A stretch of 64,000 bases of DNA from Thermoanaerobaculia bacterium. Lineage in GTDB: Bacteria; Acidobacteriota; Thermoanaerobaculia; Gp7-AA8. Of this stretch, positions 23,577-48,503 are shown one piece after another; the first letter of the stretch is position 1, and every line of letters begins with the position of its first letter. The notes under the pieces are model-generated. The model was not told where the DNA came from and did not search any database. It saw only the letters and a list, made by a program, of their open reading frames with translations. Where the stretch lies: positions 48,954 through 112,953 of the forward strand of contig DASVEE010000015.1 of assembly GCA_036380735.1 (NCBI GenBank), given 5' to 3'. Both the position numbers and the translations under genes were made by a program.

Positions 23577-24257
23577 TCAGTGTATGTACGGAGAGTCCGG
23601 ACGGGCCGTCGAGCGGCGGGACTGCACGATGGAGGTGGCGAGGAGGACGCGGCGGCCGATCTCGTCCCACTGCTGCGTCTTGACGAGGTCCGGCATCGCC
23701 AGCGAGCCGCCGAGGTTCACGGCGACGCAGCCGGCGTCGAGATAGGAGTCGATGTATTCGAGCGTCACGAGTCCGCCGGCGAGCATCGGGATGTCGCGCA
23801 GCGGTCCGCGGATCGTGCGGATGTAATCGGGTCCGCCGAGCTGCGGCGCGGGGTAGACCTTGACGATGTCGCAGCCCGCTTCCCAGGCGCGCACGATCTC
23901 GGTCGGCGTGGCCGCTCCGGCGACGGAGAGCATGTCGTTCTCGATCGAATAGTCGATGAGGCGGACGTCGGTGTGCGGCGAGACGATGACTTCCGCCCCG
24001 GCGCGACGGGCCAGCGCCGCGTCGTTCGTGCTGCGAACCGTTCCGGCCGCGACGACGATGCCCTGATCCTTGTAGCGCTGCACCATCTTCCCGATCAGCT
24101 CGACGGCGTCGGGCGTGGTGAGGGTGATCTCGAGGACCCGGATTCCGTTACGGGCATAAGCATCAGCGACGGACTCGGCAATGCGAGCGTCATCTTCGCG
24201 AACGACGCCGACGATCTGTTCCGAGCAGACGCGGCGCAAGAGCTCCTTGCGTGACAT
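23577..24257 (-). CDS. eda: KDPG / KHG aldolase (Eda family)
   Basis: ...GIRVLEITLTTPDA...VAAGTV...GAEVIVSPH...VKVYPA... typical of Eda TIM-barrel aldolases. Confidence 0.75.
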   Translation of the reverse strand: MSRKELLRRVCSEQIVGVVREDDARIAESVADAYARNGIRVLEITLTTPDAVELIGKMVQRYKDQGIVVAAGTVRSTNDAALARRAGAEVIVSPHTDVRLIDYSIENDMLSVAGAATPTEIVRAWEAGCDIVKVYPAPQLGGPDYIRTIRGPLRDIPMLAGGLVTLEYIDSYLDAGCVAVNLGGSLAMPDLVKTQQWDEIGRRVLLATSIVQSRRSTARPDSPYIH

Positions 24258-24280
24258 GCGGGTAGGGTAGCACGCGCGAT

Positions 24281-24362
24281 TTATGGGACTAATAGGGCAC
24301 ACACTTCTGCCTCTGTCCTATACGTCCCATTCGTCCTATCGGTCCTATACGTCCTATCGTTC
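24281..24362. repeat. GTCCTAT-type tandem array with weak complementary left arm
   Basis: tatgggactaatagggcac ... tgtcctatacgtcccattcgtcctatcggtcctatacgtcctatcgttcc. Confidence 0.65.
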
Positions 24363-39230: not shown

Positions 39231-39297
39231 GCTACCGCCCCTTCGCCCCATTCGTCCCCTCCCCCCGCTCGATCCACCCGGTGATACCTTACGCGCG

Positions 39298-40485
39298 ATG
39301 GAACTCGACATCTTCTTTTCGATCTGCCAGACGGAAGTGAACGGCTATCTGCCGAGCGAGCGCGTCATGTTCGAGAACTTCTTCGAACAGGTCGACCTCG
39401 CCGACCGCCTCGGCTTCGGCACCGCGTGGGTGGCGGAGAGCCATCTCTCCACGGAAGTGCAGAAGACGAACCCCGGCGCGGTGATCCCTCACTTCGTCGG
39501 CGAGATCGGGCTCAACACCGACATTCTCCAACTCGCGCACAAGGTGTTCGCGCGGACGAAGCGGATCGGCATCGGCTCCGCGATCCTCAACATCCTCTGC
39601 AACGGCGGCCCGATCGCGCACGCGGAGCGGATCAAGACGTTCCTCTCGCTCCATGGGCTCGACCCGCACGAAACGCGCACGCTGACGATCGGCTTCGCGT
39701 CCGGCCGCTTTCCCTTCATCAACATCCCGTACGGCATCGTGCCGCGGAATGCGGTGGAGGAGGCGGCGTGGCCGGTGGTGAAGAACAAGATCTTCGAGGA
39801 GGCGACGGAGATTTTTCTCCGCCTGCTCAAAGGGGAGACGCTCAACTCCTCGATGATTGCCACGCGCACGATGAAGCGGGCCGACTTCCGCAAAGACGAG
39901 GACTGGCAGCGTGTGCAGGAAGCCTACGGGCAGCCGGCGGAGGAGATTCCGCTCGCCGCGCGCTGGCCGTTCCCCAACCTCAAGATCGTGCCCGAGGAGC
40001 CGCGGATGGAACTGCTGCGCCTCTCGATCGGCTCGCACGACCCGGCTACGCAGATCTTCGCCAACACGATCCTCCCGGTCGGCGTCTTCAACCTCTCGAT
40101 CACCCCTGGGGACGAGATCGAGAAGACGAACGAGCGGATGCAGACGCACTACCACCCCGACGGCGGCGGCTGGCAGCGCCGGCTGATGCCGCGGACGGTC
40201 CTGGTCTTCATCAACGACGACGATCCGGCGAAGGCGCACCAGGAGGCGCGCGACGCGCTGTCCAACTACTGGCGCGCGCTCGAAGGGACTCTGGACGAGG
40301 AGAAAGTGCGCCGCGCCACGAACAACGCGCTGGTCGGCAACGCCGAACAGATCGCCGCCCAGATGCAGGAGCGCTTCCATTCGGACGACCGCCTGATGCT
40401 GTGGTTCGACTTCAATAATCACGACTCGAAGAGAGTCATGAAAAACATGCACGATTTCATGACGAAGATACCGCATAACAAATAG
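39298..40485 (+). CDS. LLM-class (luciferase-like) flavin-dependent oxidoreductase
   Basis: Bacterial-luciferase TIM-barrel family features; start at MELDIFFSI. Confidence 0.6.
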   Translation: MELDIFFSICQTEVNGYLPSERVMFENFFEQVDLADRLGFGTAWVAESHLSTEVQKTNPGAVIPHFVGEIGLNTDILQLAHKVFARTKRIGIGSAILNILCNGGPIAHAERIKTFLSLHGLDPHETRTLTIGFASGRFPFINIPYGIVPRNAVEEAAWPVVKNKIFEEATEIFLRLLKGETLNSSMIATRTMKRADFRKDEDWQRVQEAYGQPAEEIPLAARWPFPNLKIVPEEPRMELLRLSIGSHDPATQIFANTILPVGVFNLSITPGDEIEKTNERMQTHYHPDGGGWQRRLMPRTVLVFINDDDPAKAHQEARDALSNYWRALEGTLDEEKVRRATNNALVGNAEQIAAQMQERFHSDDRLMLWFDFNNHDSKRVMKNMHDFMTKIPHNK

Positions 40486-40594
40486 GACGAATAGGACGAA
40501 TAGGACCAACAGGACCGATGGGACCGACAGCACCTACCGACAGCCGGGCGCAGCGTCCCGTTCGTCCTATTCGTCCTATAGGTCGTCCTATCGT
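40481..40594. repeat. Tandem-repeat-armed hairpin element (ATAGGAC 9-mer arms), core contains GGGCGCAGC
   Basis: aataggacgaataggacgaataggaccaacaggaccgatgggaccgacag ... gtcccgttcgtcctattcgtcctataggtcgtcctatcgttgcc. Confidence 0.75.
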
Positions 40595-41282
40595 TGCCCT
40601 GCTGCTGGCTGCAGGGCTGCTGCTGTTTGGCGCCTTCCACCTCAGCCGGTCCCGGACCTTCCAGCTTTTCGGCACGATCGTCCAGCGCGTCGACACCGAG
40701 CGCCGCGTCGTGGCGCTGACCTTCGACGACGGGCCGACGCGCGAGTACACGGACAGCGTCCTGGCCACGCTGCGGCAGCACAACGTCCGCGGGTCTTTCT
40801 ACCTCGTCGGGCGCGACGTTCAGCGGAACCCGGACCTCGTGCGGCGCATCCTGGCCGAGGGGCATGAGGTCGGGAACCACTCCTGGTCGCATGAGCGGAT
40901 GCTGCTGAAGTCGCCCTCCTGGATTCGCGGCGAGGTGGAGAATACCGACCGCGTCCTGCGCGCCGCCGGCGTCACCGGCCCGATCCACTTCCGCGCGCCG
41001 TACTGCAAGAAGCTCGTCGGTCTGCCGTGGTACCTCGCCCGGACGAACCGCACGCACGTCACCTTCGACGTCGAGCCCGAGACCGAGGAGCGGGTGGCCG
41101 CGTCCGCCCAGCTCATTGCCGATGACGTCCTGCAGAAGGTGCAGCCCGGATCGATCATCCTGCTCCACGTGATGTTCCGCAGCCGGGAAGAGTCGCGCAA
41201 GGCGCTGCCGCTGATCATTCCGCGCCTGCGCGCGGCCGGCTATGACTTTGTGACCGTGTCGGAGCTGCTGGCAATGCGGTAG
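40518..41282 (+). CDS. Polysaccharide deacetylase (NodB-homology domain), membrane-anchored; 5' end uncertain
   Basis: VALTFDDGP...HNVRGSFYLVGRD...GHEVGNHSWSH NodB motifs; the annotated N-terminus overlaps a GTCCTAT repeat array, so the real start is probably near [10 protein letters not shown]. Confidence 0.75.
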   Translation: MGPTAPTDSRAQRPVRPIRPIGRPIVALLLAAGLLLFGAFHLSRSRTFQLFGTIVQRVDTERRVVALTFDDGPTREYTDSVLATLRQHNVRGSFYLVGRDVQRNPDLVRRILAEGHEVGNHSWSHERMLLKSPSWIRGEVENTDRVLRAAGVTGPIHFRAPYCKKLVGLPWYLARTNRTHVTFDVEPETEERVAASAQLIADDVLQKVQPGSIILLHVMFRSREESRKALPLIIPRLRAAGYDFVTVSELLAMR

Positions 41283-41288
41283 AAGCTT

Positions 41289-41392
41289 GAACGCAGAACG
41301 CAGAACGCAGAATGCAGAACGCAGAACGCAGAATTGAGAACGCGGTTGCCCCTTTTCAACGTTCTGCGTTCTGCGTTCTGCATTCTGCATTC
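41289..41392. repeat. Tandem-repeat-armed hairpin element (GAACGCA heptamer arms)
   Basis: gaacgcagaacgcagaacgcagaatgcagaacgcagaacgcag-aattgagaacgcggttgccccttttcaac-gttctgcgttctgcgttctgcattctgcattc. Confidence 0.85.
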
Positions 41393-41461
41393 ACGGTTCT
41401 GCCTTCAAACCCCGGCGCAATAGGACAGAGGCGCCCCACCGTTTAGAATGGCCGCCTCGCC

Positions 41462-42553
41462 ATGACCACCATCGATCAGGCACCAGCCACCTTCGACGAA
41501 TCGCAGGCCGTCAGTTTTGCCCGGGCCATGCCGAACTGGCAGCCGCTCGTGGAGTACCGGCGGAACGGCGTCGCGGAGAACACGATTCACGGCGCCGTTT
41601 CGTGGGTGTCGGGGAAGAACCTCATCTACTCGTTCGGCGGCAACGTCGAGGTCTACGGACGCTCGATGGTGAAGCCGATCATGATGAAAGTCTTCGCTCG
41701 CGAGTTCTCCGGCGCGCTCGATCCGGAACAGCAGGCGATCTCCGTCGCCTCGCACAACGGCGACAGCGACCACGTGCGCGTCGCGCGCTCCATCCTCCGC
41801 GAAGGGGAATGGGGGCTGATGCAGACGCCGCACGATGTGCCGCTCGTGCAGTTCGGCCGGCAGGTGCGCCGTCCACGGCGCTGGTATCACTGCTGCTCCG
41901 GCGAGCACGCGGCCATCCTCCGCGGCTGCAAGATCAAAGGGTGGTCGCGCGTCGGCTACGTCTGGCCGCATCACCCCTTCTTCCAGGAGCACCTCCGCTA
42001 CATCCGCGAGGTCCTCGGCCCCGACTGGAAAGCCGGCACCATCGCCAAGGACGGCTGCGGCCTGCCGACCGTCTCCATGACGGTCACCGATCTGGCCAGG
42101 CTCTTCGCCAACATGGTCACGGAGAAGGACTCCGACTGGATCTGGGGAGCGATGACGGCGCATCCCGACCTCATCGGCGGTTTCAACCGTCTCGACTCGA
42201 CCGTGCTCAAAGCCTGTGGCGGCCGCGTGCTGGCCAAGGAAGGCGCCGACGGTCTCCTCGGGCTGGCCATCGAGCATCCCGAATATCCGGAAGGGCTCGG
42301 CGTGGTGGTGAAGATCGCGCACGGCTGGAACCCGCAGGCCACCTGGTACATCGCCCGCTACATCCTCGGCGTCCTCGGCTTCGAGTTCCGCAACCCGTAC
42401 AAGCTGCGGCGCCAGAAGGCCTTCATCGTGCCGGAGGTGATTCCGCCGAACCTTCGCGAGCGCATGGCGGCGATCACGCCGTGGGATTCGTGGGATCCGG
42501 ACATCGACCGCTGGGAGTTCGAACCGGAGGAATTCGTTGCAGCCCCACGGTAA
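41462..42553 (+). CDS. Asparaginase-II-family protein (PF06089-like)
   Basis: SMVKPIMMKVF...SVASHNGDSDH...HCCSGEHAAIL pattern characteristic of the Asparaginase_II family. Confidence 0.5.
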   Translation: MTTIDQAPATFDESQAVSFARAMPNWQPLVEYRRNGVAENTIHGAVSWVSGKNLIYSFGGNVEVYGRSMVKPIMMKVFAREFSGALDPEQQAISVASHNGDSDHVRVARSILREGEWGLMQTPHDVPLVQFGRQVRRPRRWYHCCSGEHAAILRGCKIKGWSRVGYVWPHHPFFQEHLRYIREVLGPDWKAGTIAKDGCGLPTVSMTVTDLARLFANMVTEKDSDWIWGAMTAHPDLIGGFNRLDSTVLKACGGRVLAKEGADGLLGLAIEHPEYPEGLGVVVKIAHGWNPQATWYIARYILGVLGFEFRNPYKLRRQKAFIVPEVIPPNLRERMAAITPWDSWDPDIDRWEFEPEEFVAAPR

Positions 42554-43964
42554 CTTCATCGACGGGAAGTTCGTCCCGCCGGTCCACGGTCAGTACCTCG
42601 ACGACATCGGCCCGGCTACCGGCGAAGTGATCGCGCGGATTCCCGACAGCGATGCGGCGGACGTGGCGAACGCCGTAGCCGCGGCGGAGCGCGCCTTCAA
42701 GACGTGGTCGCGCACACCGGCCTCTGAGCGCTCGCGCCTGCTGCTGAAGCTCGCGGACCTGATCGAACAGCATCTCGACGAGCTGGCGCAGCTCGAGTCG
42801 CGCGACAACGGCAAGCCGGTGGCGCTGGCGAAGCGGATGGACATTCCCCGCGCCGTCGCCAACTTCCGCTTCTTCGCCACCGCCATCCTCCATCACTCCA
42901 CCGGCGCGCACGTCACGGACGGTGCGGCGCTGAACTACACGCTGCGTCATCCGCTCGGCGTCGCGGGGCTGATCTCGCCGTGGAACCTGCCGCTCTATCT
43001 GCTCTCATGGAAGATCGCGCCGGCCATCGCCTCCGGCAACACGTGCGTGGCGAAGCCGTCGGAGCTGACGCCGCTCACCGCCAACCGCATGGCGGAGCTG
43101 GCGAACGAAGCGGGCATCCCGCCGGGCGTCATCAACATCGTGCACGGCCTCGGCGCCAAAGCGGGGGCCGCGATCTGCGAGCATCCGGGCGTGCCGGTGA
43201 TCTCGTTCACCGGCGGCACGGTCACGGGACAGAAAGTTGCCGCCACCGCCGCGCCGATGTTCAAGAAGCTGTCGCTCGAGCTGGGAGGCAAGAACCCGAA
43301 CGTCATCTTCGCCGACGCCGATCTCGAGCAGGCGATCCCCACCTCGATCCAGTCGAGCTTCGCGAACCAGGGCGAGATCTGCCTTTGCGGCTCGCGTATC
43401 TTCGTCGAGCGCACCATCTACGATGAGTTCTGCGAGCACTTCGTCGCCGCGACGAAGAAGCTGCGCATCGGCGATCCGGCCGATGCGGCGACGGACGTCG
43501 GCGCGCTCATCTCGCAGGCGCACCTCGACAAAGTCCTCGGCTACATCGCCCTGGCCCAAGAAGAAGGCGGCGTCATTGCCGCCGGCGGCAACCGCGTCGA
43601 CCGTCCCGGTTACTTTGTCGAGCCGACGGTCGTCACAGGCCTCGGGTGCGAATGCCGCGTGCTGCAGGAAGAGATCTTCGGTCCCGTCGTCACGATCACG
43701 CCGTTCGAGTCGGAGGAGGAAGCGGTCGGCTTCGCCAACTCGACGAAGTACGGGCTGTCGGCGTCGCTCTGGACGCGCGACCTGCAGCGCGCCCACCGCG
43801 TCGCGGCGGCGCTCGACAGCGGCACCGTCTGGGTGAATTGCTGGCTCCTGCGCGACCTGCGTGTCCCCTTCGGCGGCGTGAAGGAGAGCGGCGTCGGACG
43901 CGAAGGCGGCTTTGAATCGCTGGAGTTTTTTACCGAAGCCAAGAACGTCTGCGTGAAACTTTAG
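42537..43964 (+). CDS. NAD(P)-dependent aldehyde dehydrogenase (2-aminomuconate / 2-hydroxymuconate semialdehyde dehydrogenase-like)
   Basis: ALDH glutamate and cysteine active-site motifs (LELGGKNP, FANQGEICLCGSRIF); context with the amnB-like genes. Confidence 0.85.
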   Translation: MQPHGNFIDGKFVPPVHGQYLDDIGPATGEVIARIPDSDAADVANAVAAAERAFKTWSRTPASERSRLLLKLADLIEQHLDELAQLESRDNGKPVALAKRMDIPRAVANFRFFATAILHHSTGAHVTDGAALNYTLRHPLGVAGLISPWNLPLYLLSWKIAPAIASGNTCVAKPSELTPLTANRMAELANEAGIPPGVINIVHGLGAKAGAAICEHPGVPVISFTGGTVTGQKVAATAAPMFKKLSLELGGKNPNVIFADADLEQAIPTSIQSSFANQGEICLCGSRIFVERTIYDEFCEHFVAATKKLRIGDPADAATDVGALISQAHLDKVLGYIALAQEEGGVIAAGGNRVDRPGYFVEPTVVTGLGCECRVLQEEIFGPVVTITPFESEEEAVGFANSTKYGLSASLWTRDLQRAHRVAAALDSGTVWVNCWLLRDLRVPFGGVKESGVGREGGFESLEFFTEAKNVCVKL

Positions 43965-44044
43965 GAATTGAGAATTGGCGAATTGAGAATTGAGAATCGC
44001 GTAGCGCAACCCATTCTCAATTCTCAATTCCGAATTCTCAATTG
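43965..44044. repeat. Tandem-repeat-armed hairpin element (GAATTGA heptamer arms), core CGCGTAGCGCAACCC
   Basis: gaattgagaattggcgaattgagaattgagaat-cgcgtagcgcaaccc-attctcaattctcaattccgaattctcaattg; ends 9 nt before the downstream ATG (GAGGAAG Shine-Dalgarno partly inside the arm). Confidence 0.85.
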
Positions 44045-44053
44045 AGGAAGCCC

Positions 44054-45295
44054 ATGACCGCCACCGCCCTTCCCTTCGCCATCCCTGCCGAACCGACGGC
44101 CACGTGGAGCATCGCCAAGCGCCTCACCTTCCGCTTTGCGTTCGTCTATCTGATCCTTTACAGCCTGCCGTTCCCGCTGATGATGCTGCGGGAGCCGTGG
44201 CAGAACCTGTGGAACGCCATCGTGCCGGCCGTGGCCACGAGCGTCTTCGGCGTCGCGGCCGACGTGCTGCCGAATGGGAGCGGGGACACGACGTGGAACT
44301 ACGTGCAGGTGTTCTGCTTCGCGTCGTTCGCGCTGCTGGCGACGCTGCTGTGGACCGCGCTCACGCGGGCGAAGAGCCACCCGAAGCTGTACGCGGCGCT
44401 GCGCATTTACGTGCGCTTCTCGCTGGCGATGGTGATGGTCCAGTACGGTGCGGTGAAGGTGATCCAGGCGCAGTTCCCGTCGCCGACACTCGAGCGGCTC
44501 GTGCAGCCGTACGGCGCCTCGTCACCGATGGGGATTCTCTGGACGTTCATGGGCGTCTCTGCCGCGTACAACCTCTTCGCCGGGCTCGGTGAAGTCATCG
44601 GTGGGGTGCTCCTCACGATGCGCCGCACCACCCTCGCCGGCGCGCTGCTGTCGCTGGCGGTGATGGGGCACGTGGCGATCCTCAACTACTGCTACGACGT
44701 GCCGGTGAAGCTCTTTTCGACGCACCTGGTGCTGATGGCGCTGTTCCTCGCCGCGCCCGACCTGCCGCGCGTGCTGCGCTTCTTCACCGAATGGAGCGGC
44801 GGCCACGGGAAGCGGTGGCTAGTCCTCGCCCGCACAGTCGTCGTCGCCGGCTTCGTCGGCTATTCGTTGTTCGTCGCTCAGCAGGGGCGGACGTTGTATG
44901 GCGATCTTTCACCGCGCTCGCCGCTGCGCGGCATCTGGAACGTCGACGAGCTGACGGTTGACGGCGTCAGCCGTCCGCCTCTGGTCACGGACGCCAGCCG
45001 CTGGCGCCGTGTCATCTTCGACAACCCGCGCTTTTCGTCGATCTACACGATGGATGACGTGCGCCAGCGCTTCGCGTCCACGCTGACGGGGAAAACGCTG
45101 GAGCTGACCGACCGTGATGATCCGCAGCGGAAGATCGTGCTGACGTACGCCCGCGTCGACGCGAAGACGCTGCGGCTCGAAGGGAAGGTCGACGGAAAAC
45201 AGATCGCCGCCACCTGCCACCTGCAGGACGAAGGGCAGTTCCTGCTGAAGACGCGCGGCTTCCACTGGACCAATGAGTACCCGTTCAACCGGTAG
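44054..45295 (+). CDS. Membrane protein (DoxX-like N-terminal TM domain plus about 140-aa soluble C-terminal domain), function unknown
   Basis: Multiple TM helices (FRFAFVYLILYSLPFPLMML...); embedded in the aromatic-amine cluster. Confidence 0.35.
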   Translation: MTATALPFAIPAEPTATWSIAKRLTFRFAFVYLILYSLPFPLMMLREPWQNLWNAIVPAVATSVFGVAADVLPNGSGDTTWNYVQVFCFASFALLATLLWTALTRAKSHPKLYAALRIYVRFSLAMVMVQYGAVKVIQAQFPSPTLERLVQPYGASSPMGILWTFMGVSAAYNLFAGLGEVIGGVLLTMRRTTLAGALLSLAVMGHVAILNYCYDVPVKLFSTHLVLMALFLAAPDLPRVLRFFTEWSGGHGKRWLVLARTVVVAGFVGYSLFVAQQGRTLYGDLSPRSPLRGIWNVDELTVDGVSRPPLVTDASRWRRVIFDNPRFSSIYTMDDVRQRFASTLTGKTLELTDRDDPQRKIVLTYARVDAKTLRLEGKVDGKQIAATCHLQDEGQFLLKTRGFHWTNEYPFNR

Positions 45296-45378
45296 GATCG
45301 GATTGAGGATGGCTTCGCTGGGCGGAACGTTTCGCCGAGCGCAGCCATCCTCAATCCTCAATCCTTCATCCTCAATCC
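45296..45378. repeat. Tandem-repeat-armed hairpin element (GGATTGA heptamer arms), core GGCTTCGCTGGGCGGAACGTTTCGCCGAGCGCAGCC
   Basis: ggatcggattgaggat ... atcctcaatcctcaatccttcatcctcaatcc; the right arm is longer than the left. Confidence 0.8.
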
Positions 45379-45384
45379 CGATAG

Positions 45385-46311
<927 letters not shown>

Positions 46312-46317
46312 CAACCC

Positions 46318-46414
46318 GAACGCAGAACGCAGAACGCAGAATGACGAATTGAGAAAGGGGACCGATCGTGGTGCGCAGCATTTCTTCGTTCGACGTTCTG
46401 CGTTCTGCGTTCTG
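46318..46414. repeat. Tandem-repeat-armed hairpin element (GAACGCA heptamer arms)
   Basis: gaacgcagaacgcagaacgcag-...ggtgcgcagc...-cgttctgcgttctgcgttctg. Confidence 0.85.
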
Positions 46415-46419
46415 ACTTC

Positions 46420-47880
46420 ATGAATCCAATCCTCAAGGCTTACGTAGTCCCTGGACAGCCCCACATTCTTCTCGGCGATCGGCAGAACGCCGGCTGGGCC
46501 AAACTGAAACATGCCTACGAACAAATCGGTCGTGAGATCGAACGGTCCGGGGCGGAGCTGATTCTCCTTTACTCGACGCAGTGGTTCTCCGTCATCGGGC
46601 ATCTGTTCCAGATCGATCCGCGGCCGAAGTGGACGCTGGTCGATCAGAACTGGTACGAGCTCGGGGAAATCCCTTACGAGTTTCGTGTCGATCCGAACTT
46701 CGGGGAGCTGTATTGCCGCACGGTGAAAGACGCGGGGATGCAGGCGGCGACGGTCGCGTATCACGGCTTTCCGATCGACACCGGGACGGTCGTGGCGCTG
46801 AAGCTGATGAACCCGAACAACGCGGTGCCGGCGTCGATGGTCTCGTGCAACATCTACGCGGAGCGCGAGGAGACCCGCGCCCTCGGCTTCGCCGCACGCA
46901 AAGCGATCGAGGCGTACGGGAAGAAGACGATCGTCGTCGCGGTGACGAACTTCTCGAACCGCTACGAGGTGGCGGAGATCGATCCGGCGAAGGACCGTAT
47001 CTCCTCGCAGAAGGATGACGAGTGGAACCGTAAGCTCCTCGAGATGTTCGCCGAGGGGCGGCTGGAGGATGTGGCGCAGGTGGCGCGTGATTTTGCGCGC
47101 GAGGCCAACGCCGACATGGGCTTCAAAGCCATCTGGTGGCTCGGCGCGGTGATGGGGGAGCACAACAGGTACGACGGCAAGGTGTGGGAGTACCAGCCTG
47201 TCTGGGGCACCGGCAGCGCCATCGTCGAGCTGACCCCGAACGACCGCAAGCAGATCGACTGGGAGAAAGAGTTCGACGAAGGACCGGTCCCGGTCTTCGA
47301 CAGCGCGGGCTCCGGCGGTTCCAGCGGCACCGGCCTGGAAACGCACAACGTGCTGGAACGCGGGCCCGATGTGCACCAGCAAAGCGAAATGAACTCCCAG
47401 GAGGATTCCTCGACGGGACGGTCCAGTCCGATGAGGTCCATCAGTCCTCTACGTGCGATCGGTCCTGATGACACCGCGGTGCGCACCGATCGCGCGCCTG
47501 CGCCGGTCGGCCCGTATCCGCACGCGCGGCGTGTCGGTGATTTCCTGTTCCTTTCCGGGATCGGGCCGCGCAAGCCGGGAACGGGGGAGATCCCGGGGCT
47601 CATTCGGGATGCGGCGGGCTCGGTGATCGATCACGACATCGAGGTGCAGACGCGCGCGTGCATCGAGAACATCCGCGCGATCCTGGAGGACGCGGGCAGC
47701 TCGCTGGAGAAGGTGCTCGACGTGACGGTGTACCTCACCGACATGCAGCGCGATTTCGACCGCTTCAACAAGGTCTACGCCGAGTACTTCGGGCAGATCC
47801 AGCCGACGCGCACGAGCGTCGGGGTCGATTCGCTGCCGACGCCGATCGCCGTGGAGTTGAAAGTGATCGCGGCGCGATGA
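46420..47880 (+). CDS. Fusion protein: LigB-family AmnA-like domain + Ser/Gly-rich linker + RidA/YjgF-family (AmnD-like 2-aminomuconate deaminase) domain
   Basis: N-terminal about 300 aa paralogous to the preceding gene (ILLYSTQWFSVIGH...); C-terminal about 130 aa with the RidA fold (PAPVGPYPHARRVGDFLFLSGIGP...VTVYLTDM...F); single ORF of 486 aa. Confidence 0.6.
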   Translation: MNPILKAYVVPGQPHILLGDRQNAGWAKLKHAYEQIGREIERSGAELILLYSTQWFSVIGHLFQIDPRPKWTLVDQNWYELGEIPYEFRVDPNFGELYCRTVKDAGMQAATVAYHGFPIDTGTVVALKLMNPNNAVPASMVSCNIYAEREETRALGFAARKAIEAYGKKTIVVAVTNFSNRYEVAEIDPAKDRISSQKDDEWNRKLLEMFAEGRLEDVAQVARDFAREANADMGFKAIWWLGAVMGEHNRYDGKVWEYQPVWGTGSAIVELTPNDRKQIDWEKEFDEGPVPVFDSAGSGGSSGTGLETHNVLERGPDVHQQSEMNSQEDSSTGRSSPMRSISPLRAIGPDDTAVRTDRAPAPVGPYPHARRVGDFLFLSGIGPRKPGTGEIPGLIRDAAGSVIDHDIEVQTRACIENIRAILEDAGSSLEKVLDVTVYLTDMQRDFDRFNKVYAEYFGQIQPTRTSVGVDSLPTPIAVELKVIAAR

Positions 47881-48503
47881 AGCTCATCGACATCTCGCCG
47901 CTGATCGACGAGTCGATCGGCGTCTGGCCGGGCGACACGCCGTTCCGGCAGAACGTTAGCGTGGACATGCATCAGGGAGCGAACCTCACGCTCTCCGACG
48001 TCCACACGACGCTGCACGTCGGCGCGCACACCGACGCGCCGAACCATTACGTCGCGGACGGCGAGGACATCGCGCAGCGGCGGCTGGAGCTGTACATCGG
48101 AGCGTGCAACGTGATCCACGTGGACGTCGCCCGCGGCGAGCGCATCATGCCGTCGCACCTCGCGGGGAAGGCGATCACCGCCGCGCGCGTGCTCTTCCGC
48201 ACCAACACGTTCCCCGATCCCCGCGCGTGGAACGACGACTTTGCCAGCCTCTCGCCGGAGCTCATCGAGGTGCTGCACGATCGCGGCGTCGTCCTCGTCG
48301 GGCTTGATACGCCGTCGGTCGATCCGTTCGAATCGAAAGCGCTCGAAGCGCACAACGCGCTCGCGCTGCACGACATGGCCAACCTCGAAGGGGTCGTGCT
48401 CGAAGGCGTTCCGGAAGGGGAGTACGAGCTGATCGCGCTGCCGCTGCGGATCAGGGGAGGAGACGCAAGTCCCGTACGAGCGGTGTTGCGAACGCTCGAT
48501 TGA
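47877..48503 (+). CDS. Cyclase-family protein / kynurenine (aryl) formamidase KynB-like
   Basis: DISPLIDESIGVWPGDTPF...HVGAHTDAPNHY, the HxGTHxDxPxH metal-binding motif; ATGA overlap with the upstream gene. Confidence 0.7.
   Translation: MKLIDISPLIDESIGVWPGDTPFRQNVSVDMHQGANLTLSDVHTTLHVGAHTDAPNHYVADGEDIAQRRLELYIGACNVIHVDVARGERIMPSHLAGKAITAARVLFRTNTFPDPRAWNDDFASLSPELIEVLHDRGVVLVGLDTPSVDPFESKALEAHNALALHDMANLEGVVLEGVPEGEYELIALPLRIRGGDASPVRAVLRTLD

Follow-up and report, generated by a model that had tools for sequence, protein, structure and literature searches.

We analyzed a stretch of 64,000 nucleotides (nt) from a Thermoanaerobaculia bacterium (Acidobacteriota; assembly GCA_036380735.1, contig DASVEE010000015.1, positions 48,954-112,953, forward strand), hereafter called the window, and in particular a block of genes for the putative cleavage of an aminophenol ring. 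At its center lies an open reading frame (ORF) of 486 amino acids (aa) that joins an AmnA-like subunit of 2-aminophenol 1,6-dioxygenase to a Rid-family domain. This AmnA-Rid fusion is genuine, with conserved counterparts in about 80 related species. We consider it probable (roughly 0.65) that the block is a native operon encoding the upper segment of a modified meta-cleavage pathway for an o-aminophenol. In this pathway, 2-aminophenol or one of its close analogues would undergo ring opening by AmnB and the AmnA-like domain, with 2-aminomuconic 6-semialdehyde (2-AMS) as the product. An aldehyde dehydrogenase (ALDH) would then oxidize 2-AMS to 2-aminomuconate, from which hydrolysis by the tethered Rid domain would yield ammonium and 2-oxohex-3-enedioate (4-oxalocrotonate). 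The fusion would set a 1:1 stoichiometry and hold the deaminase at the dioxygenase.

Both Pfam domains of the fusion are present in all of the best 120 clusters (90% identity) for the 486-aa protein, which are 452-518 aa long, come from many independent soil metagenomes and metagenome-assembled genomes (MAGs), and are labelled in the databases "Rid family hydrolase" or "2-aminophenol 1,6-dioxygenase alpha subunit". A scan with one genome per species gave 80 fusion loci, nearly all of which match query residues 4-485 in a single frame. Their hosts are without exception Thermoanaerobaculia or Acidobacteriota "gp7" MAGs, save one MAG labelled Bdellovibrionales (49% identity), and the fusion also occurs in several long-read or complete-chromosome MAGs. 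More distant fused lineages at 46-54% identity (P0121, P0123, P0126, and P0130) were recovered by an exhaustive search of 50%-identity representatives. The possibility of a frameshift in the linker, raised in an earlier note on this DNA, was addressed by these homologs, as one uninterrupted ORF was found in the best 120 clusters and the 80 genomes. The same note knew of no such fusion elsewhere; with 80 species-level genomes and the distant lineages, it is in fact widespread. An exact copy of the window protein is not on record in the assembly index. Our literature search found no paper on an alpha-subunit-deaminase fusion, on aminophenol in Thermoanaerobaculia, or on amn genes in Acidobacteria, and the AmnA-Rid fusion seems to be undescribed so far, a variant of known chemistry and not a new system.

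An AlphaFold2 model of the monomer (40 homologs) has both domains folded, with a predicted local distance difference test score (pLDDT) below 50 for aa 281-349, and the model thus says that the two are connected by a disordered linker of about 75 residues. The description of this linker as Ser/Gly-rich applies only in part, since its first part is a conserved motif and not low-complexity sequence. WEKEFDE (aa 281-287) and GTGLETHNV (aa 303-311) show little or no variation among 120 homologs, and the stretch that follows the motif varies from 22 to 77 residues. The motif is kept down to ~62% identity inside the Thermoanaerobaculia and is absent from the distant lineages, one of which (L083) has almost no linker in its fusion.

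The fusion gene belongs to a series of eight tightly spaced, co-directional ORFs on the + strand at 39.3-48.5 kb of the window, which were assigned to families with Pfam and NCBIfam profiles and by sequence matches in the PDB. Every ORF of the earlier note was found on the + strand where it had been placed; the first gene below lies outside the region which that note covered, yet is part of the conserved module. Names of enzymes are predicted from the matches given.

39283..40485, +, LLM (luciferase-like) oxidoreductase; Pfam Bac_luciferase, 6.3e-10; start set at the Met of MELDIFF
40518..41282, +, polysaccharide-deacetylase (NodB-fold) protein; Pfam Polysacc_deac_1, 1.8e-30; variably present
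41462..42553, +, divergent hydrolase of the class-3-asparaginase fold (PF06089); Pfam Asparaginase_II, 5e-50
42537..43964, +, AmnC-like 2-aminomuconate-6-semialdehyde dehydrogenase (AMSDH-like ALDH); Pfam Aldedh, 1.9e-173
44042..45295, +, hydrophobic membrane protein of 417 aa, no family; without a Pfam or NCBIfam match
45394..46311, +, AmnB, catalytic beta subunit of 2-aminophenol 1,6-dioxygenase; LigB, 1e-27; 3VSG_B, 9.5e-135
46420..47880, +, 486-aa fusion ORF; LigB at aa 19-263 and Ribonuc_L-PSP at aa 357-485
46420..47238, +, fusion part 1, AmnA-like non-catalytic alpha-subunit domain, aa 1-273; 7TXY_A, 1.1e-56
47239..47472, +, fusion part 2, linker, aa 274-351; WEKEFDE...GTGLETHNV motif, then a tail of variable length
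47473..47880, +, fusion part 3, Rid-family domain of the 2-aminomuconate-deaminase type, aa 352-486; Ribonuc_L-PSP, 2e-27
47877..48503, +, KynB arylformamidase (kynurenine formamidase); Cyclase Pfam; TIGR03035, 228 bits

The start codon of the ALDH gene is a TTG, preceded by GGAGG at a distance of 6 nt and located within the final nucleotides of the asparaginase-fold gene. An overlap of the fusion stop codon and the kynB start in an ATGA, as noted earlier, can be read directly in the sequence.

The ORF at 45394-46311 is, by sequence, an AmnB-type catalytic subunit, for which ring cleavage of 2-aminophenol is predicted. Its best PDB matches extend over the full length and are all subunits of 2-aminophenol 1,6-dioxygenases (3VSG_B, 9.5e-135; 8IHG_A, 2.4e-125; 7TXY_B, 2e-108), relatives that have been characterized on 2-aminophenol and 2-amino-5-chlorophenol. 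The best LigB protein outside the Amn group, the homoprotocatechuate dioxygenase HPCD (8IQ8), matches at 8.8e-10, about 125 orders of magnitude weaker. AmnB keeps H14, H63, E252, and H196, with identity at these positions in the alignment to 3VSG_B. In CnbCb, we take His13, His62, and Glu251 to be the 2-His-1-carboxylate Fe(II) ligands and His195 to be the catalytic His, following the work on 3VSG.

The N-terminal domain of the fusion matches alpha subunits (7TXY_A, 1.1e-56; 3VSG_A, 1.2e-47; 8IHG_B, 4.4e-45) much better than beta subunits (only 1e-22 to 1e-26). Its residues G12, Q54, N180, and D232 align with H14, H63, H196, and E252 of AmnB, so that three of the four are lost and the fourth is changed from Glu to Asp; STQW stands where AmnB has SPHW, and likewise in CnbCa. 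Because the catalytic positions are lost, the domain is classed as a non-catalytic partner, as in the known AmnA/CnbCa. The assignment of the two LigB proteins to AmnB and to an AmnA-like partner is therefore upheld, and neither groups with gallate or protocatechuate dioxygenases.

Among the representative proteins, three of 682-1034 aa (P0155, P0159, and P0161) carry an AmnA-like LigB domain behind a branched-chain-amino-acid ABC permease domain (BPD_transp_2), and one of them has a further alpha/beta-hydrolase domain after LigB. They may represent a genuine domain arrangement or a product of faulty gene calling.

The ALDH of the second step matches the AMSDH structures 4NPI, 4I1W, 7BZV, and 4U3W at 1e-135 to 2.4e-139. 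Its top PDB match is 4O6R ('Aldehyde Dehydrogenase', generic; 3.5e-140), with 4NPI/4I1W next at about 2.5e-139, within one order of magnitude. In AMSDH, Arg120 and Arg464 bind the substrate carboxylate and 2-amino group (Huo et al., 2015). When aligned to 4NPI, the window ALDH keeps the equivalents of both Arg120 (in DIPRA) and Arg464 (in LRDLR), the second of which is absent in the generic 4O6R. The AMSDH matches together with the two arginines are in agreement with the AmnC-like label given earlier.

For the Rid domain, the sequence indicates the 2-aminomuconate-deaminase (AMD) type, and deaminase activity is predicted. The domain belongs to PF01042 (Ribonuc_L-PSP, 2e-27), is borderline for TIGR00004 (106.2 versus a cut-off of 106.25), and keeps the GPY motif and the RidA-type Arg (PTRTS, aligned with PAR of RidAs and AMD). 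It aligns to 6IZH, the 2-aminomuconate deaminase AmnE of Pseudomonas sp. AP-3 (1.7e-26; the deaminase is named AmnD or AmnE depending on the paper), without gaps across the extended Lp2 loop. This loop sets AmnE apart from generic trimeric RidAs, four structures of which (2DYY, 2CSL, 2B33, and 1XRG) show a gap of 11-12 residues here. The same loop is shared with a RidA encoded beside amnB-amnA-amnC on plasmid pC of Ensifer adhaerens, a protein with 46% identity to the Rid domain. The difference between the two Rid types is of importance, since human RIDA, a generic member, gives no acceleration of 2-aminomuconate deamination, whereas proteins of the AMD clade do. The shared loop and the identity to the Ensifer protein speak for the AmnD-type fold that had been recognized before. 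Furthermore, a standalone Rid homolog (55% identity) is encoded 15 nt downstream of an ALDH gene whose product is 54% identical to the window ALDH, and an 873-aa protein (P0129; L084 165-2786) consists of an AMSDH-like ALDH, 59% identical to that of the window, and, in tandem, three Rid domains that belong to this subfamily. P0129 is the sole gene of a 2.9-kb JGI contig and its origin is possibly eukaryotic. By their sequences, the gene pair and the ALDH-3xRid fusion each independently connect the Rid subfamily found here with that of the ALDH.

KynB scores 228 bits against TIGR03035, the trp_arylform equivalog with a cut-off of 223.05, which bears out the earlier KynB-like call. It matches P. 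aeruginosa KynB (4COB) at 3.8e-54 and 4COG at 4.2e-47, with only 6e-4 for isatin hydrolase, and carries the HxGxHxDxPxH motif (HVGAHTDAPNH); on these features it is a good orthologue of the characterized kynurenine formamidases. The asparaginase-fold protein is a member of PF06089 (170.8 bits versus a cut-off of 25), as had been proposed, but does not have the complete zinc site of a class 3 asparaginase. In class 3 L-asparaginases of the ReAV type, this site is formed by two Cys and one Lys and is accompanied by Ser-Lys tandems (PMC11024299, PMC12292245). The window protein keeps an S-x-x-K tandem (RSMVK) and both zinc Cys, while the zinc-ligand Lys is replaced by Glu (CSGEH versus CSGKH). 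Because of this replacement and its distance from the R. etli enzymes ReAIV and ReAV (8e-22 and 3e-15), it is probably an uncharacterized amidohydrolase that should not be named asparaginase. An N-formyl precursor would probably be cleaved by KynB to the free arylamine, and an N-acyl or amide precursor probably likewise by the asparaginase-fold hydrolase; it is plausible that both free o-aminophenol or its precursor from N-formyl/N-acyl forms. For the LLM oxidoreductase, no informative match was obtained in the PDB.

The 417-aa membrane protein had been called DoxX-like. This identity was rejected for want of family or pairwise support, as no Pfam match was found even at E<=10 and the protein shows no similarity to the DoxX of the Ensifer pC amn cluster (BLASTP E 2.1). 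Its homologs, no more than 40-53% identical, are found in about 20 related loci; the protein is an optional member of the block. The deacetylase gene is found in only a few related loci.

The organization of the block was compared in those related loci with enough flank to be assessed. Directly upstream of the fusion, amnB is found in 51 of 74 loci (not adjacent in 23), and further upstream follow the ALDH (44 of 66), the asparaginase-fold gene (42 of 59), and LLM (39 of 58); kynB is directly downstream in 33 of 68. In two distant lineages with unrelated flanks the order is kept as SDR-LLM-AsnII-ALDH-AmnB-fusion (L081) and AmnB-fusion-Cyclase (L083). Because the module persists in such lineages, its linkage is functional and not merely phylogenetic. 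The contigs of P0121, P0129, and P0193 are too short for context beyond the gene itself. In two or three clades with about 23 genomes, the fusion and kynB stand behind a gene for an Eda-like aldolase, with no amnB within 10 kb. This Eda-like gene (KDPG/KHG aldolase-like, called from the N-terminal sequence only) marks a rearrangement breakpoint. Since the parts remain highly conserved after their separation, all are under selection and co-transcription is not needed.

The window has its own Eda-like gene at 23577-24302 on the - strand, 22 kb from the operon, the counterpart of which in L044 (9302-9979) is directly upstream of the fusion. Solitary amnB genes (L105-L165, e.g., L106 8001-8912, L123 8001-8912, and L112 7995-8906) lie among housekeeping genes (Maf-like and others) and are 88-92% identical to the window amnB; in some of these loci the gene of the 417-aa membrane protein is directly upstream. 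In the metagenome loci, AmnB is far more conserved (83-97% identity) than its neighbors.

Several results weigh against an o-aminophenol pathway of the proposed kind. The fusion links the non-consecutive steps 1 and 3, because 2-AMS is consumed by the unfused ALDH and the deaminase substrate is 2-aminomuconate. Genes of the lower pathway (4-oxalocrotonate decarboxylase/hydratase, DmpF, and DmpG) are absent from the window and from 2.27 Mb of related flanks searched with the Ensifer proteins, the only matches being weak ones to a gene resembling hydroxymethylglutaryl-CoA lyase. In about one third of the related genomes the fusion (with kynB) stands apart from amnB, the ALDH, and the asparaginase-fold gene, and amnB has no downstream fusion in 31 of 58 metagenome loci, so that the operon linkage is not obligatory. 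The generic ALDH 4O6R and the gamma-hydroxymuconic semialdehyde dehydrogenase 4GO4 match the window ALDH equally well, and this ALDH remains under the NCBIfam cut-offs for HpaE (TIGR02299, 572.7 versus 638.35) and 2-hydroxymuconic semialdehyde (2-HMS) dehydrogenase (TIGR03216, 571.9 versus 693.25); its sequence places it in the same superfamily branch as these two, as a member of neither equivalog. Similarly, the Rid domain scores about equally against generic RidA structures and 6IZH, and Arg56 of AmnE, which forms the hexamer (PMC6742747), is Ser in the window.

KynB also allows the module to be read as the tail of tryptophan/kynurenine (or anthranilate) catabolism, with KynB acting on N-formylkynurenine, an AmnAB-type enzyme in place of 3-hydroxyanthranilate dioxygenase (with or without ACMSD), and the ALDH and Rid domain as AMSDH and AMD. 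This is a live alternative, though one that we consider unlikely, and it has several points in its favor. KynB is above the trp_arylform cut-off and closest to P. aeruginosa KynB, and its gene stays joined to the fusion in several lineages, L083 among them, even where amnB is elsewhere. AMSDH and AMD are common to the kynurenine and aminophenol routes, and the genes are core and chromosomal, as amino-acid catabolism would predict. However, no TDO, KMO, kynureninase, or ACMSD was recognized among the ORFs of the window, judged by eye from the first residues only, or in the annotated neighborhoods of the distant lineages L081 and L083. Moreover, AmnB is very close to enzymes characterized on aminophenols, and about half of the assessable loci lack kynB.

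The reason for the fusion was considered under the o-aminophenol pathway. 2-AMS has a half-life of 35 s and decays to picolinate, whereas 2-aminomuconate has one of about 160 min. The suggestion in the earlier note that the fusion channels the reactive enamine product is thus questionable, as the short-lived compound goes to the ALDH and the deaminase receives the more stable one. Possible rationales are a stoichiometric co-expression and co-localization, a recruitment of the ALDH into the complex, perhaps via the conserved linker motif, or a direct deamination of the 2-AMS imine to the stable 2-HMS. AmnAB units dimerize through their beta subunits and Rid proteins are trimers or hexamers; for this reason a higher-order assembly may be predicted. 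It is conceivable, and we give it only little weight, that the fusion is an alternative to compartmentalization. In this reading, the two alpha C-termini would point outward, each with a Rid domain that has to form trimers or hexamers, and the protein would self-assemble into a large particle, either closed or a network, such as (alpha-Rid)6-beta6 or a cage of 12 units. The result would be a shell-less metabolon that handles the semialdehyde, with the linker motif recruiting the ALDH and the Rid domain possibly acting on the semialdehyde itself.

In a further alternative, deamination would come first: the Rid domain would hydrolyze the imine tautomer of 2-AMS to 2-HMS, which the ALDH would then oxidize, so that loss to picolinate is prevented. 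Being fused to the dioxygenase, the Rid domain might be expected to act on the product of that enzyme, and 2-AMS may bind as the 2-imine during its short life. In addition, AMSDH-type enzymes use 2-HMS well (Km ~10 μM), and the best NCBIfam matches of the ALDH are hydroxymuconic-semialdehyde dehydrogenases. On the other hand, loci that lack a dioxygenase have the same Rid subfamily beside the ALDH or fused to it, which fits an ALDH-then-deaminase order, and the Rid domain resembles a characterized 2-aminomuconate deaminase. We regard the deaminate-first order as rather improbable.

The block was previously taken for a catabolic island. We found a uniform GC content (0.63-0.66 in the block, as in the whole window), no transposase, integrase, or mobility genes in or beside the block, and flanking genes for an outer-membrane protein, a D-Ala-D-Ala-dipeptidase-like protein, a GGDEF/EAL protein, and a glycosyltransferase whose synteny with the block extends over dozens of species. 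The genes are family-wide and, in a large subclade, dispersed among housekeeping genes. The island reading was rejected on this composition, synteny, and dispersal; the block is best explained as an operon native to the Thermoanaerobaculia and inherited vertically. A horizontally acquired island for xenobiotics (nitrobenzene, chloroaniline, or aminophenol) flanked by mobile hairpins could be imagined from the plasmid-borne Amn/Cnb clusters of Comamonas, Pseudomonas, and Ensifer and from the repeat hairpins between the genes, but it is largely refuted by the same findings and very improbable, and the hairpins sit inside the block and not at its borders.

A long hairpin of tandem 7-9-nt units is present in every intergenic gap of the operon, and the unit differs at most sites. 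Instead of the two pairs of hairpins described in the earlier note, there are five, only two of which share a unit.

40478..40584, hairpin of tandem 9-mers (ACGAATAGG); overlaps the deacetylase start
41287..41408, hairpin of tandem heptamers (GAACGCA)n; 47-nt arms, 89% complementary
43961..44046, hairpin of tandem GAATTGA heptamers
45300..45378, palindrome with 29-nt arms; the arm end occurs a third time
46318..46419, the other (GAACGCA)n hairpin, located in the gap from amnB to the fusion gene

In the 64 kb, (GAACGCA)n is confined to 41287-41408 and 46318-46419 (14 matches versus 0.02 expected). Because the gap between amnB and the fusion is either ~3 nt or ~450 nt in relatives, the hairpins look like inserted elements of the repetitive extragenic palindromic (REP) or miniature inverted-repeat transposable element (MITE) kind. 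For the deacetylase ORF, the N-terminus as annotated (RPVRPIRPIGRPI, window 40518-40600) is one arm of the 9-mer hairpin in translation, and the true start probably lies further downstream. In the closest relative (L077, 8186-8290), an in-frame run of about six GAACGCA heptamers, followed by a GTCCCAT-type repeat, lies within the linker coding sequence and translates as RTQNAERRTQNAE...PIRPIGPIGPIG; the run consists of the heptamer of the two intergenic hairpins of the window. Hairpins in the linker DNA of the window itself amount to a weak 12-nt pair. The linker seems to tolerate the insertion of repeat elements of the genome, by which part of its length variation would be explained.

Lastly, an artificial union of separate amnA and ridA genes in the 486-aa ORF, by misassembly or frameshift, which could be suspected since Proteobacteria have RidA and AmnA/AmnB genes separate but adjacent, was ruled out for practical purposes, as the single ORF of the best 120 clusters and 80 genomes recurs in independent assemblies of many studies and the frame is always kept although the linker length varies.

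Our findings suggest that an uncultured, abundant lineage of soil acidobacteria carries a core, conserved capacity for o-aminophenol ring opening, which is known mostly from pollutant-degrading Proteobacteria and the kynurenine pathway. The conserved partners LLM, asparaginase-fold hydrolase, and KynB point to a natural arylamine or arylamide substrate in soil. Rosetta-stone evidence from the AmnA-Rid fusion, the ALDH-Rid pair, and the ALDH-Rid fusion would assign this Rid subfamily to 2-aminomuconate deamination and help to annotate an ambiguous family. The joining of a dimer-forming subunit to a trimer-forming domain represents a testable natural co-assembly of enzymes around an unstable aldehyde.

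Compared with the tail of the kynurenine pathway of bacteria and fungi (KynB, the AMSDH NbaE/ALDH8A1, and the deaminase NbaF/AMD), the window shares KynB, the two-arginine AMSDH-like ALDH, and the AMD-type Rid domain. It differs in that the ring-opening enzyme is of the AmnAB type and not the cupin HAAO, and in that ACMSD, TDO, KMO, and kynureninase are not linked, as far as the window ORFs viewed by eye and the annotated distant neighborhoods are concerned.

The closest solved relative of the alpha domain, 7TXY_A, comes from the ARO bacterial microcompartment of Actinobacteria (Doron et al., 2023; PMC10470539). In both systems only the early enzymes (dioxygenase, ALDH, and deaminase) are together, with the late-pathway genes elsewhere, and both can be read as a co-localization of enzymes around a reactive aldehyde. 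Shell proteins are absent from the window locus, where co-localization, if any, would be achieved by covalent fusion and not by encapsulation; the paper on the ARO microcompartment makes no mention of a fusion, KynB, or RidA. If the idea of a shell-less metabolon were true, it would be the counterpart of this microcompartment. Rid domains inside multidomain proteins, as here, are also known from the tandem 3x-RidA fusions of Niehaus et al. (2015), and P0129 combines an ALDH with such a 3x-Rid; a dioxygenase-subunit fusion is not mentioned in the parts of that survey available to us.

The greatest likeness is to the amn/cnb/nbz pathway (Pseudomonas sp. AP-3 amnBAC..., Comamonas CNB-1 cnbCaCbD...; 3VSG, 8IHG, and 6IZH), which has the same three enzyme families and the same predicted chemistry: an alpha/beta LigB dioxygenase whose alpha subunit is catalytically dead, an ALDH of the AMSDH type, and a deaminase of the Rid type, with amnB directly before amnA. 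A complete proteobacterial cluster of this type is present on Ensifer adhaerens plasmid pC (L170; NZ_CP098810.1, 45103-60462) and comprises genes for an amidase, a nitroreductase, DoxX, IclR, SDR, two RidA, AmnB, AmnA, an ALDH, and the lower pathway; its AmnB and AmnA are misannotated in RefSeq as 'tRNA U-34 5-methylaminomethyl-2-thiouridine biosynthesis protein'. The lower genes (decarboxylase, hydratase, aldolase, and acetaldehyde dehydrogenase) are contiguous in Ensifer pC and unlinked in the window. In contrast to these systems, the alpha subunit and the deaminase form one polypeptide in the window, the accessory genes are those for LLM, the asparaginase-fold hydrolase, and KynB, and the locus is chromosomal and core instead of plasmid-borne, in a host from an uncultured class of acidobacteria.

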